From a virus (taxonomy: Duplodnaviria; Caudoviricetes), in IMG/VR virus record IMGVR_UViG_3300037424_001387, positions 539 to 64,538 of that record: DNA of 64,000 bases; one strand, 5' to 3'. Under the pieces are notes generated by a model. The model saw only the letters and a list, made by a program, of their open reading frames with translations. It was not told the origin of the DNA and ran no database searches. The position numbers and the translations under genes are program-made. Positions within the stretch are counted from its first letter, which is position 1. The number at the start of each line of letters is the position of its first letter. Shown one piece after another: positions 44,782 to 50,531 of this stretch.

Positions 44782-45489
44782 TCATACGTACAACCTCGCT
44801 TCAGGGTATTTTGCCGCATAGGCATTAAACAAATCAGGCCAGCCGCGCTTAAGGATTGTCAGTTGTCCATACCCTAAAACCCCTTCAACCGCAAATGGTC
44901 CGATCCTCTGCTGCTCTAACGGTATCCCGATTTCTTCCATCTTGTCGTAAGCCCGATTGTAATCCAGGCCGGTCGAATGGATATAGGCCCATACATCGCA
45001 ACAGGTCCATTGCCATATTGGATTGCAGTGCCAAAAGTCATCGGATTGAGCAAAAAACAGCGGACCAAATTTACGCAGATGAAAAAGACGGCGGGTGTTT
45101 TCATCCTGGCGCAACCCCAAAAATACCAGGTCCATATTGTGGACCCTGGCATAATGAGGTATGCCGTCCCAATCCCCTGCCACTTGGAACCATTCAGCGT
45201 GCCAAGCATTAGTCCGAATCTGGCGGACATCAAGCCCGGTTGTCTGTAGCCGTTGTACATACTCCAACGATTCGGGCAAAAACCATTCATCATCAGACCA
45301 GATGGCCGGCGTGTTTTTTGCCTGCTCACATACCAGGCCATAGACAACGGTCGAGTCCTTGCCGGTTGATAGGGCAACGTATGGCGAGTTGCTTTTTTGC
45401 AATGCCTCACTAACTACCCGCCGGGCCTGCTCAAGCCGGCGCTTAAAAAGGTTGGTTTTTGAGTGCAGGGCGGCTATCTCATTTCTCAT
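44782..45489 (-). CDS. cysH: CysH/PAPS-reductase-like protein of type IV-B CRISPR-Cas
   Basis: VALSTGKDSTV PP-loop, FLGLRQDEN..R, CNPIWQWT..DVWAYI, DYNRAYD. Confidence 0.88.
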   Translation of the reverse strand: MRNEIAALHSKTNLFKRRLEQARRVVSEALQKSNSPYVALSTGKDSTVVYGLVCEQAKNTPAIWSDDEWFLPESLEYVQRLQTTGLDVRQIRTNAWHAEWFQVAGDWDGIPHYARVHNMDLVFLGLRQDENTRRLFHLRKFGPLFFAQSDDFWHCNPIWQWTCCDVWAYIHSTGLDYNRAYDKMEEIGIPLEQQRIGPFAVEGVLGYGQLTILKRGWPDLFNAYAAKYPEARLYV

Positions 45490-46172
45490 TCTGGCATCAC
45501 CAATGGGACTTGATTCGATTGCCGCCAGTAAGACGGCCTGATACCGTAAGTGCCGATATTAAAGCCGCCCTTGTACCCGGCTATATCATCAAATGGCACA
45601 CCGCGCATCAGTCGCCCGTCTTTCCACACTGACCAATCTTCCGGCGCTGCCTCAATTTGCCAGCGATAGACCCGTCCCCACCCCTGGCTATATTTTTTGC
45701 CAAGATGGGTAACTGTGCTGAGTAGATATTCAATTTCCGCTCTATTCCCAACACAGTACCATTCAACCCATTCAGCGACCCGGTAAAAAATCGTCATATG
45801 ATAAGCCTTGTACTGACCTGCCTCTATGACAACTTTGCCTCGTTTATCTCTAAAATCTACCAACCCAGAAAGACCGTTGTCAAAACGTTTGTTCCAATGG
45901 TCCTGGCCTTCGGTTGCGCCCCGTGCCCATTGCGCCCAGGAACATCGATAATACCAGTTGTCCTGACCCTGCCGGGCAATAGCCAGGGGCAGCATTTCCG
46001 TTCGGTTGGGACTGCTCACACTCCCGCCCGGTATGGTCGATTCTTGCGCCCCGTATTTCTCCCGGTGAGCCTGATAAAGCAAAACACCATCCAACGGCAA
46101 CCACCTGTCAGATACCACCCCGCAACGTAACCAGGCCCGAATATGGAGCGGTTGGTAATCAGGTGAGTCCAT
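45486..46172 (-). CDS. csf3: Type IV Cas5-like RAMP Csf3
   Basis: PLHIRAWL..LPLDGVL, HWNKRFD, GQYKAYH, WYCVGN..IEYLL..LGKK..GWGRV, GIRPSYW. Confidence 0.85.
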   Translation of the reverse strand: MDSPDYQPLHIRAWLRCGVVSDRWLPLDGVLLYQAHREKYGAQESTIPGGSVSSPNRTEMLPLAIARQGQDNWYYRCSWAQWARGATEGQDHWNKRFDNGLSGLVDFRDKRGKVVIEAGQYKAYHMTIFYRVAEWVEWYCVGNRAEIEYLLSTVTHLGKKYSQGWGRVYRWQIEAAPEDWSVWKDGRLMRGVPFDDIAGYKGGFNIGTYGIRPSYWRQSNQVPLVMPE

Positions 46173-47133
46173 TGATTAATCTCCTAATTTCATCGGCCCG
46201 GCCGGTCAGATGTTGCATATAGTGACTCCCAAGCGGTGTATCTACCGCTTGACCGGCGGGGGCAATCCTGGGATCGACCTCAATCCAATTATCAAACTTG
46301 ATCGACACCTTGCCGTGTCCAACCCCGCTTTTGCCGCCGATGTACGGGAACCGGCTAAATTCAGCCAGGGTAACGGCGAAGGCATCAAACTCAATCGGGG
46401 TTACATCATCAAGAGTGACATCCCAAAATAACTCCGTGCCGGCGGCCAGGGTTTCGATAAAGTATCTCATTTGCTGCTTCTGTCCGGTTTCGCCAGCAAC
46501 ATCGGCTTTTGTCCCACTTTTAGCCCGCTCAACACGAGCTTTGTCTTCCAAAACACCCCGCACATCAGGGGCAATCAGTTGGCGCAAGTTTTCATTTTTC
46601 TCATCATCCCGGCGGGTATAGGCTTCCTCTTGCACCATTTCCCAAATCGACCGGCTACCATTTCCACCACCAAACCGGGGCGGCAACAGGTGGACCGTCT
46701 CATCACAAATTGGTATCCCCTTGCCGACCTTAACTTTTCCGGGCATTATCTGGTGGCCCATTGCTCCCCCAAATAGAGCAACCAAGGGGATTAATTCCCG
46801 CCACCGCCGGGCCTCGTCAATATCAATTCCCTTCCCAGAAACCTTTGTCAAAGCCCCTCCGCTGAACAAAAAATAAAAAGCCGGTAGAGACAACCCCCTG
46901 ACTTCCCCGCTCTCCTCGTCCACCCCATACCCCAGGGTCCGTAACATATGGAGCATCCCTCGATCCCTCAGAATCCCACGCAGGCTATTGCCTGAGATAA
47001 TTGGTATTTCTTCGACCCCGGCCGGCGCAACAATCTTCTCCCTTCGCAGCCGGGACGAAACGCCGTAGGACTCTCCGATATGGCTCACCGAAGAGAGGCA
47101 TGTCATTACGCCTTCAAAAATGTAAGTTTTCAT
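46159..47133 (-). CDS. csf2: Type IV Cas7-like RAMP Csf2
   Basis: SSVSHIGE, PIISGNSLRGILRD, FLFSGGAL, P..ALFGG, YTRRDD, G-rich loop IGGKSGVGHG. Confidence 0.92.
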   Translation of the reverse strand: MKTYIFEGVMTCLSSVSHIGESYGVSSRLRREKIVAPAGVEEIPIISGNSLRGILRDRGMLHMLRTLGYGVDEESGEVRGLSLPAFYFLFSGGALTKVSGKGIDIDEARRWRELIPLVALFGGAMGHQIMPGKVKVGKGIPICDETVHLLPPRFGGGNGSRSIWEMVQEEAYTRRDDEKNENLRQLIAPDVRGVLEDKARVERAKSGTKADVAGETGQKQQMRYFIETLAAGTELFWDVTLDDVTPIEFDAFAVTLAEFSRFPYIGGKSGVGHGKVSIKFDNWIEVDPRIAPAGQAVDTPLGSHYMQHLTGRADEIRRLINGLT

Positions 47134-47516
47134 TCCGTTTCAATCTCCGTTATCGTGGTAAATAAATCACTTGTGGCCTGGCGTTCTTCCCAGGCTTCCC
47201 GCCGCTCCTGGTTGCGGACCCGGACCATTAAAACTATCAAGGTCGTTTCATCCCGGTACAGCCGTAAAAGCTGCCTGTCGTGCCCGCTGTTTAGAATTTC
47301 TTCGGCACGACGTGTATCATCGCCTTTGATCTGGCTATTCAGTTTCAAACAAGCTGAGTTGACGAACTTCCCCAAGTTGTCGGTGTACGCGCTCGCCCTC
47401 ACCGTGTTCTCGAACTGCTCCCAAATCGTCTGGCGGTAACGGCTCTTGTACTCGCTGCCTATCCCCTTCCATAGGATTTCTAGCAGGTCTGCCGCCGTCT
47501 CCCTCATTTTCTCCAT
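47130..47516 (-). CDS. cas11: Cas11-like small subunit
   Basis: 128-aa helical protein between csf1 and csf2; IWEQFEN.VRASA..L.KFVNSACLKL. Confidence 0.75.
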   Translation of the reverse strand: MEKMRETAADLLEILWKGIGSEYKSRYRQTIWEQFENTVRASAYTDNLGKFVNSACLKLNSQIKGDDTRRAEEILNSGHDRQLLRLYRDETTLIVLMVRVRNQERREAWEERQATSDLFTTITEIETE

Positions 47517-48135
47517 CCTTGATTTCCTTTCTTTGGCTCAAGAACAGAGCCAATTTAAAAAACAGAGATCCCCGAAGCGGTTTAATTACCGACTCCAGGG
47601 ATTGCCATTTATCGAAGCCAAATTGTACTATTCGATAGGGTAGGTACTGGCCTGATTCAATCTCGCCTTTTGAAAAAACAAGTAGGCCAGCCTCAACCGT
47701 GTCAATCAGGGTTTTTAACTCTGCCGGAATGATCCACAGTCGTTGTTCCTCGAATTGGACCCACCCCGCTTTACTGCCAACCGGGTTGCGAGTTGCCCGA
47801 AAAACGATGTGCTTTTGTCCCGATTCGGCAATCACTGCCAATTCTGGAAAAGACTCACCGAGTAGCAGATCGATCATTTTGACCTTGTCGCCTTTGGACA
47901 GGGGAGTCCATTTACCGGCTATAACAAAATGGCTGTAATTCCGCATCTTTTGCGGCTTGTCCTTGCCGGTTATAACGGCCAACTCTTGGCTTTGTTCCTC
48001 AAACCAAAAGCCACAATCAGAACAGATAATCTCGCCCGGCTTCAGCTTGTCGTGGTCAGTGAACGTGTCTTTCACCCATCCATCAAACGACAATCCGTTA
48101 CCGGGCATTCCACAGAAACGACAAGTACCATCCAT
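47335..48135 (-). CDS. csf1: Type IV large subunit Csf1 (Cas8-like)
   Basis: CRFCG...FTDHD..ICSDC, RNYSHF, SGQKH motifs; AGGAG RBS before MDGTC. Confidence 0.8.
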   Translation of the reverse strand: MDGTCRFCGMPGNGLSFDGWVKDTFTDHDKLKPGEIICSDCGFWFEEQSQELAVITGKDKPQKMRNYSHFVIAGKWTPLSKGDKVKMIDLLLGESFPELAVIAESGQKHIVFRATRNPVGSKAGWVQFEEQRLWIIPAELKTLIDTVEAGLLVFSKGEIESGQYLPYRIVQFGFDKWQSLESVIKPLRGSLFFKLALFLSQRKEIKDGENEGDGGRPARNPMEGDRQRVQEPLPPDDLGAVREHGEGERVHRQLGEVRQLSLFETE

Positions 48136-50205: not shown

Positions 50206-50215
50206 ATCTCCGATC

Positions 50216-50467
50216 TCACTTCAAGATTGACGGGTCTAAAACCTGATAAGCATCAAAACTTAAAAGCATTCCCTGGGCGTATCGACTGTAAAATTCGTTG
50301 TATTCCCGAAAATCTGTAACATTGACAATCAGCTTAAAAATACCTATGTCGCAGACGGCGACAAGCTGGCCACTAAAAGCCGGCTGTTGTTCCAGGGCTG
50401 GCAACCGCCTGCACTTTTGCTGAATATCCTTGATTTTACCAACATCATAATAGGTGCCCACAATCAA
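50216..50467 (-). CDS. Hypothetical protein
   Basis: AAGGAG RBS after promoter E. Confidence 0.6.
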   Translation of the reverse strand: MIVGTYYDVGKIKDIQQKCRRLPALEQQPAFSGQLVAVCDIGIFKLIVNVTDFREYNEFYSRYAQGMLLSFDAYQVLDPSILK

Positions 50468-50502
50468 ATCTCCTTTACAAAACTAATTAATTAACTGCCT
50501 CT

Positions 50503-50531
50503 ATCATAACACATAAATGTACCTTTGTCAA
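50503..50531 (-). promoter_or_regulatory. Sigma70 promoter heading the operon that ends in type IV-B cas genes
   Basis: TTGACA-17nt-TATGAT; no terminator seen before 44752. Confidence 0.8.

Follow-up and report, generated by a model that had tools for sequence, protein, structure and literature searches.

Introduction

Type IV-B CRISPR-Cas systems are defined by three core csf genes, a cas11-like gene and a cysH-like gene, with no CRISPR array (PMC8175902), and reviews of the subtype leave its function open (PMC8175902). The sole biochemical data come from the Csf complex of Mycobacterium sp. JS623 (7JHY; Zhou et al. 2021, PMC7937560), which bound heterogeneous non-CRISPR RNA (PMC7937560; PMC8175902), and the associated CysH-like protein, CasCysH, has been predicted to act as an ATP alpha-hydrolase and to be without the catalytic cysteine (PMC7937560; PMC8175902). 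Phage-borne, array-less IV-B cassettes have already been published, for example from Fuxivirus (PMC10848311). Here we describe such a cassette in a stretch of 64,000 nucleotides (nt), hereafter the window, taken from the virus record IMGVR_UViG_3300037424_001387 (Duplodnaviria; Caudoviricetes; positions 539 to 64,538), where it forms the end of a putative twelve-gene operon whose second gene, g2, encodes a Csx16 domain.

Csx16 (Cas_VVA1548, TIGR02620; Hoikkala et al. 2024/2025) is a ring nuclease in vitro with specificity for cyclic tetra-adenylate (cA4) (Hoikkala et al., 10.1101/2024.09.24.614671). A relationship of Csx16 to DUF1874, the family of AcrIII-1, has been suggested. Phages seldom encode Csx16; it was counted in 2 of 28,114 phage genomes and not characterized there. 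AcrIII-1/Crn2 proteins (DUF1874, STIV B116-like) represent viral removal of cA4; their known fusion partner is Csx1, as part of a cellular system, and not a C-terminal domain of the type found in g2.

Both elements that the locus described here joins are of known kinds, IV-B cassettes and ring nucleases carried by phages. Its cassette holds the same five genes as the JS623 and Fuxivirus systems, likewise lacks an array and is borne by a mobile element, and the closest PDB match to its Csf2 is 7JHY; it differs in belonging to a phage-borne clade, represented on at least 25 IMG/VR contigs, whose csf1 overlaps cas11 by 137-248 nt in another frame, and in being an apparently promoter-less unit inserted at the 3' end of a foreign operon. 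The N-terminal 91 residues of g2 match the Csx16 profile end to end and keep its motifs, whereas the gene is phage-encoded, lies away from type III loci, carries an added domain of ~135 amino acids (aa) and has Asn in place of one near-invariant His. With AcrIII-1 the likeness lies in the proposed action and in the best structural match of the N-terminal domain (2j6c_A), and genuine DUF1874 domains carry the same C-terminal domain in other phage contigs, although g2 itself fits the Csx16 profile and not PF08960. The locus also resembles the anti-defense or 'moron' clusters near early phage promoters in grouping unrelated small accessory genes under one strong promoter, with content that varies between close relatives; unlike them it holds a whole five-gene Cas effector cassette, and the anti-defense activity of its members is inferred only.

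The window covers nearly all of a 64.5-kb IMG/VR record (CheckV completeness 68%), and its proteins include a large terminase, a DnaB-like helicase, several DNA methyltransferases and glycosyltransferases, from which we read the source as an uncultivated tailed phage. A preliminary description of the locus, made from the sequence, had taken all twelve genes for a candidate dedicated anti-CRISPR unit that combines signal degradation with guide hijacking. We consider it probable instead that the locus is a composite accessory operon, built by accretion from parts that probably act independently, and not one system.

Results

Operon layout and the type IV-B cassette

Twelve consecutive minus-strand genes (g1 to g7, followed by the five IV-B genes) lie between a promoter-like site and a terminator, and every junction between them is an overlap or a gap of 0-28 nt. 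The landmarks of the operon and the genes of the cassette are the following:

50503..50531, minus strand: sigma-70-like promoter, TTGACA-17-TATGAT with an extended TG, 11 of 12 consensus matches
48148..48170, no strand assigned: palindrome with a TTTCTGC-TTGA-GCAGAAA core, between the g7 stop codon and the csf1 ribosome-binding site, at the left edge of the IV-B insertion
About 44759..48146, minus strand: putative inserted IV-B cassette of ~3.39 kb, exactly the five IV-B genes, missing from the collinear site of the related contig L048
47335..48135, minus strand: csf1, large subunit (PADLOC Csf1_0_IV 5.7e-22 over residues 2-202; N-terminal CxxC...CxxC)
47130..47516, minus strand: cas11, type IV small subunit (PADLOC Cas11_1_IV 2.2e-29)
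46159..47133, minus strand: csf2, Cas7 (PADLOC Csf2_0_IV 1.8e-74; TIGR03115 4e-17, below the NCBIfam strict cut-off)
45486..46172, minus strand: csf3, Cas5 (PADLOC Csf3_0_IV 6.4e-53; TIGR03116 9.6e-17, below the NCBIfam strict cut-off)
44782..45489, minus strand: cysH-like PP-loop protein, CasCysH (PF01507 PAPS_reduct 4.9e-14), overlapping the csf3 stop codon
44722..44752, no strand assigned: bidirectional intrinsic terminator, a hairpin with a 13-bp stem and A and T runs on its flanks

Promoters and terminators were called by a consensus sequence scan. The terminator is common to the cysH-like gene and a convergent gene (44256-44705, plus strand), and the internal minus-strand signals, terminator-like hairpins at 50363, 46570 and 45146 and a promoter-like site at 45883-45854, are all weak and lie within coding sequence. 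The layout given in the preliminary description, with a promoter at 50503-50531, a terminator near 44720, about twelve tightly coupled genes on one strand and no visible internal terminator, is thereby borne out, and its Csf/CysH set is recovered gene for gene. A single transcript of all twelve genes from the 50531 promoter is compatible with the sequence, and co-transcription is likely.

Judged by these profile matches, the cassette is unambiguously a complete array-less type IV-B set in the order csf1-cas11-csf2-csf3-cysH-like. The best match of Csf2 in the PDB is the Csf2 of 7JHY (1.4e-24), and no PDB sequence match was found for Cas11. The final ~60 codons of csf1 overlap cas11 in another frame (47335-47516), and as the Csf1 profile reaches only to about residue 202, the overlapping tail is by that measure an add-on beyond Csf1 proper. 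The same relative frame and an overlap of the length given above occur in 26 of 33 related IV-B loci (L002-L005, L018-L020, L025, L027-L040, L043-L045 and L047); in more distant IV-B cassettes, with Csf2 ~50-58% identical, the overlap is mostly absent.

An empty site in a related phage

The history of the cassette can be read from L048, a 5.5-kb contig of a related phage that starts at g3 and holds g3 (61% identity), g4 (83%), g5 (81%), g6 (79%) and g7 (62%) in the same order as the window, with two extra genes, one ProQ_C-like between g5 and g6 and one of 77 aa between g6 and g7. The palindrome that follows g7 is 21-23 bp long and has three copies in the window (6825-6845, 48149-48169 and 60427-60448), where none is expected by chance; its role might be that of an operator or of an RNA hairpin. 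It is kept after the g7 stop codon in L048 (1927-1949), even though g7 itself is so divergent.

Past the g7 stop codon, L048 reads TAATTTTCTGCTTAAGCAGAAAGTCT and then directly AGAATCAAAAAGACCCGACATAGAGCCGGGTCTTTTTTT, followed by a convergent homolog of the window's downstream gene. In the window, the csf1 ribosome-binding site comes next after the palindrome, whose end is at 48147, and AGAATCAAAAAGACCC... resumes at 44758, 23 nt past the cysH stop codon. A three-way alignment shows L048 to be the left junction of the window up to ...GCAGAAAGTCT joined to its right junction from AGAATCAAAAAGACCC.... Because the palindrome of L048 is joined straight to the terminator, we read this as an empty site, and the IV-B cassette as an insertion between hairpin and terminator. 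The right end of the insert (...AAAGC, meeting AGAA at the junction) recreates part of the right arm of the palindrome, which suggests that the insert was joined by microhomology. With junctions that can be read base by base against the empty site, the locus is a clear example of IV-B mobility, in which an apparently promoter-less unit from a large phage-contig clade has been placed between a gene and its terminator.

Linkage between IV-B and the upstream genes

To ask how often IV-B and the upstream block occur together, a scan with a Csf2 alignment was used to assemble 35 related loci (25 IMG/VR contigs and 10 contigs of metagenome-assembled genomes) whose Csf2 proteins are 50-72% identical. 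The csf1-cas11-csf2-csf3 order is intact wherever a contig end does not truncate the locus, and the cysH-like gene is retained in nearly every case. Not one of the 35 had a match to g1-g7 (tblastn, E<=1e-3), and hidden Markov models (HMMs) of the Csx16 domain and of the g2 C-terminal domain found nothing in the same loci with flanks of up to 8 kb; these custom HMMs recover g2 of the window at 1e-46 and 1e-56, respectively. The enrichment of Csx16 and SWIM genes around csf2 homologs, for which the preliminary description had suggested looking, is therefore not seen at any of the 35 loci. The 110 nt upstream of csf1 are dissimilar among IV-B loci, some having an open reading frame (ORF) directly before csf1 and others a promoter-like, AT-rich stretch.

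Seen from the other side, the closest full-length homologs of g2 (67-70% identity) lie on phage contigs beside RecT-like, Mu Gam-like, MazG and terminase genes. The four contexts of the closest Csx16-fusion homologs contain neither IV-B nor any of the window's other eleven genes, IV-B occurs in none of the contexts of g2, g3 and g4 homologs, and standalone viral Csx16 genes (L006-L008) are far from any IV-B. On the evidence of gene neighborhoods, the combination of Csx16 and IV-B appears to be a one-off juxtaposition and not a system. No description of the combination was found in the Csx16 and IV-B literature, the Csx16 papers being represented there largely by their titles. Even where a phage transcribes two CRISPR-derived components together, a joint mechanism does not have to follow.

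Two further features of the IV-B loci were seen. In L004, genes for two large, glycosyltransferase-like multi-pass membrane proteins (426 and 499 aa; 21-3205) lie upstream of the cassette. Between csf3 and the cysH-like gene, the same locus contains an additional gene of 122 aa (5854-6222), and several other loci show gaps of 300-600 nt at that position.

The Csx16 domain of g2

The gene g2 and its two domains are placed as follows:

49492..50199, minus strand: g2, 235 aa, a Csx16 (Cas_VVA1548) domain fused to an uncharacterized C-terminal domain (C-domain)
49927-50187, minus strand: Csx16 domain, residues 5-91, Pfam Cas_VVA1548
49495-49902, minus strand: C-domain, residues ~100-235, ~135 aa, modeled as a beta-sandwich and three helices

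The Csx16-like protein of the preliminary description proves to carry a true Csx16 domain: g2 matches Pfam Cas_VVA1548 (PF09652) at E=2.2e-16, with 60.2 bits against a cut-off of 25 and over profile positions 2-90 of 91, and it matches four PADLOC Csx16 models (Csx16, E=6.4e-16). Its score against NCBIfam TIGR02620 is 20 bits only, against a cut-off of 46, and in Pfam it does not match PF08960. In an alignment of 82 Csx16 sequences, which is dominated by similar ones, nearly all residues with a conservation of at least 85% are also found in g2, among them T7-R8-H9, G45-L47-P48 and R70-G71-E73. Of the conserved polar residues of the presumed cA4 site, T7, R8, H9, H42, H50, E60, R70 and E73 are kept, and position 32, His in the consensus, is Asn.

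Structure models of g2 reached a predicted local distance difference test score (pLDDT) of 87.6, and of 94.7 for the C-domain alone. The top structural match of the modeled N-terminal domain is 2j6c_A, that is AFV3-109 of the AcrIII-1 family (VIA, Z 4.6, root mean square deviation 2.7 over 73 residues), and its match to Csx1-Crn2 (8y7g_B) has a Z of 3.7. The former value is comparable to the Z of 4.8 published for Csx16 against 2J6B (Hoikkala et al., 10.1101/2024.09.24.614671). A tblastn search of 50,697 phage records with the g2 protein returned a single weak match, which is confined to the Csx16 part and leaves the C-domain unmatched.

The most likely role of g2, we conclude, is to degrade cA4, the second messenger of type III CRISPR-Cas in the host, or at the least to bind it. 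Removal of cA4 is its best-supported function because the biochemistry of Csx16, the conservation of residues, the relatedness to AcrIII-1 and the top structural match to AFV3-109 all point to it, and g2 would plausibly be an AcrIII-1-like anti-type III ring nuclease. The signal degradation of the preliminary description is in this respect reasonable, given that Csx16 is a cA4-specific ring nuclease and that viral ring nucleases are an established anti-type III strategy; what does not stand is its place in a dedicated joint unit. As a rare phage-encoded Csx16, g2 is a candidate anti-type III CRISPR protein.

A C-terminal domain associated with ring nucleases

Modeled alone (pLDDT 94.7, predicted template modeling score 0.85), the C-domain of g2 is a six-stranded beta-sandwich followed by three helices. 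An exhaustive HMMER search at E<=1e-3 placed it in a family of 383 representative clusters with a conserved NGKWS motif, most of which are standalone or have variable C-terminal tails. Just two Pfam partners recur among the 66 multi-domain representatives, Cas_VVA1548 (8) and STIV_B116-like/AcrIII-1 (4), all other partners being singletons. One of these fusions is P0009, whose residues 3-97 match PF08960 (DUF1874) at 5.7e-10 and whose gene adjoins a terminase; P0016 and P0017 combine the C-domain with a third and unassigned kind of N-terminal domain, and an Atlas search with this partner domain of P0016 gave no usable match.

The C-domain has no match in Pfam, 35 C-domain proteins had none in PHROGs, and its profile found nothing below E=0.1 among PDB sequences. 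Folds were compared with Foldseek against PDB and BFVD and with VIA-align against 48,161 chains, and no match exceeded a Z of 4.4, generic Ig-like sandwiches and HMG-like helices being all that was returned, an absence that does not prove a new fold.

Fusion to both Csx16 and AcrIII-1 ties the C-domain to cyclic-oligoadenylate (cOA) biology. Csx16 and DUF1874 may themselves be distantly homologous, and the two kinds of fusion are therefore not fully independent evidence. A tentative possibility, which we would not put higher than that, is that the C-domain represents a new and mostly virus-borne family acting with ring nucleases against cOA signaling, for instance by inhibiting a cOA-activated effector or by serving as a sponge for the second messenger. 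If true, the Csx16 and AcrIII-1 fusions would be bipartite proteins directed against type III systems, or against cyclic-oligonucleotide-based anti-phage signaling systems (CBASS), of a kind not yet described. As a recurrent partner of two ring-nuclease families only, the C-domain is in any case a good candidate for a new player in cyclic-nucleotide counter-defense.

A standalone C-domain gene, P0019 (L015, 920-1890; L014, 5746-6480), has small RING/IBR-like zinc-finger ORFs on both sides. These surroundings recall the small Cys-rich run after g2; this may be coincidence, phage early regions being rich in such genes.

The other genes of the upstream block

The remaining genes of the block are small, and several are probable metal binders:

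50216..50461, minus strand: g1, 81-aa ORF without relatives (ORFan), with an AAGGAG ribosome-binding site upstream and TTG at 50467 as an alternative start
49041..49484, minus strand: g3, 147 aa, SWIM-like, with the motif C102xC104-x20-C125xH127
48763..49041, minus strand: g4, 92 aa, Cys-rich (CC..H..C ... C....C), its start overlapping the g3 stop codon
48615..48776, minus strand: g5, 53 aa, zinc ribbon CxxC...CxxC (DUF7685 2e-5, Zn_ribbon_8), conserved in L048
48374..48634, minus strand: g6, 86 aa, with four conserved Cys (C20, C41, C64 and C67)
48170..48373, minus strand: g7, 67-aa ORFan, the final gene of what would be the pre-existing operon

No match to g1 was found in Pfam, PHROGs or PADLOC, PHROGs also returned nothing for g2-g4, g6, g7, csf1 and cas11, and a homolog search with g7 found no match beyond g7 itself. 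The SWIM protein of the preliminary description holds in part. Two homologs of g3 were found among 5.8 billion clusters, one of them on L048, and both keep C102, C104, C125 and H127 of the CxCxnCxH motif; the match to Pfam SWIM (PF04434) is below threshold (E=0.15, 12 bits against a cut-off of 19.6), and in the nearest Atlas clusters (score 0.94) just 13-14% of members bear a SWIM label. Because the motif is present while the Pfam match is sub-threshold and the Atlas labels are partial, we call g3 SWIM-like rather than SWIM. The three small Cys-rich proteins, g4, g5 and g6, are as previously described, with Cys positions that are kept in their relatives.

Scans of viral and metagenome sequences for relatives of g3 and g4 yielded only L013 (the same contig as L050), and the relatives of g4 are those on L048, L049 and L013. 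In L049 (3-1139), a second small contig, the order g2-g3-g4 is kept at 79-94% identity; g2 ends there just past the Csx16 domain and has no C-domain, and g4 is continued by the C-terminal tail of g5. The truncation of g2 and the run-on of g4 into g5 therefore indicate that the accessory block is itself fluid, with modules gained and lost over short evolutionary distances.

Discussion

Proposed history and alternative explanations

We propose that an older, promoter-proximal block of g1, the Csx16 fusion g2 and the small metal-binding g3-g7 ended in the palindromic hairpin and the intrinsic terminator, and that a self-contained, promoter-less five-gene IV-B cassette was then inserted between the two. 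Because the cassette has no evident promoter of its own, it would now most likely be transcribed by read-through from the 50531 promoter. By degrading or binding cA4, g2 would carry out the AcrIII-1 strategy with a Csx16 domain, and its fused C-domain would be an add-on that recurrently partners ring nucleases. The IV-B proteins would most likely come together as a Csf ribonucleoprotein, with the CysH-like enzyme as its working partner, and g2 and IV-B would probably act independently of each other.

The joint unit of the preliminary description, in which Csx16 clears the type III signal, IV-B hijacks host CRISPR RNAs and the SWIM and zinc-finger proteins are further parts of one counter-defense system, can draw on the common strand, promoter and terminator, on a coupling so tight that it leaves no space for internal terminators, on the presence of two CRISPR-derived components in a single phage operon and on the latitude that the reviews leave for IV-B function. 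We nevertheless regard it as highly improbable. The absence of conserved linkage largely refutes it: none of the 35 IV-B loci has Csx16 or g1-g7, the contexts of g2 homologs lack IV-B, and the empty site of L048 indicates that IV-B came as a separate cassette. Guide hijacking by IV-B is moreover a hypothesis, and in the sole biochemical study the RNA bound by the complex was heterogeneous and non-CRISPR (PMC7937560; PMC8175902). It is very unlikely, too, that g1-g7 are cargo unconnected with defense, of the usual early kind that serves host takeover or regulation, and that the Csx16 domain was co-opted for a function other than countering CRISPR. Small zinc-binding ORFans are common in phage early regions, g1 and g3-g7 have no informative family matches, g3 has a mere pair of homologs, and the homologs of g2 adjoin recombination genes, all of which would suit such cargo; the Csx16 family, however, is tied to type III signaling and cleaves cA4, and the fusion of the C-domain to the viral anti-CRISPR ring-nuclease fold AcrIII-1/DUF1874 again points to cOA biology.

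A different possibility keeps the patchwork operon and changes the role of g2, which would be no nuclease: it would be a sponge for cOA, or would act as a sensor and leave the actual effect to its C-domain, for instance as a binder or inhibitor of a host defense effector. This is unlikely. In its favor, position 32 is Asn in g2 and its closest relatives and His in 99% of the aligned Csx16 sequences; the C-domain family is large and independent, with mostly standalone members; its confident model has no enzyme-like structural match; and the close relative in L049 has the Csx16 domain without the C-domain, which implies that each domain can function on its own. Against it, g2 retains the TRH motif along with the other conserved polar residues, the characterized Csx16 is a nuclease (Hoikkala et al., 10.1101/2024.09.24.614671), and there is no indication of a ligand for the C-domain.

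Several observations weigh against a composite operon with an anti-type III ring nuclease at its head. The Asn at position 32 might mean that g2 binds cA4 rather than cleaving it, and the structural matches of its N-terminal domain are weak, all with Z <5. The proposed role would require a host with a cA4-signaling type III system. The case for the empty site comes from L048 as its one example, and the presence of g1 and g2 before g3 cannot be read there. A promoter-like site with 10 of 12 matches lies inside csf3 (45883-45854, minus strand), and a lineage-specific functional interplay between the parts would be compatible with the absence of conserved linkage.

Further features of the window

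Region 44000-51000 has no DNA-level match among the 50,697 records of deposited phages, and no Rfam families were found in the window. TRF and a direct-repeat search found no CRISPR array in its 64 kb. A two-copy direct repeat of 25 nt at 30142 and 30220 (30142-30244, 78-nt spacing) was considered as a mini-CRISPR array and rejected, and is probably a coding repeat, a minus-strand frame encoding the repeated peptide EAIAE(F/I)VK.

Back to back with the operon promoter stands a plus-strand promoter of perfect consensus (50575-50603, TTGACA-17-TATAAT with TG), which would drive an 83-aa DinI-like protein (50575-50897, plus strand; Pfam DinI 6.6e-5, just under threshold). Near the end of the record, at 63903-63982, the 23-nt unit GGGTGACATTTTGCCGGGGGGGG is present in 3.5 tandem copies.

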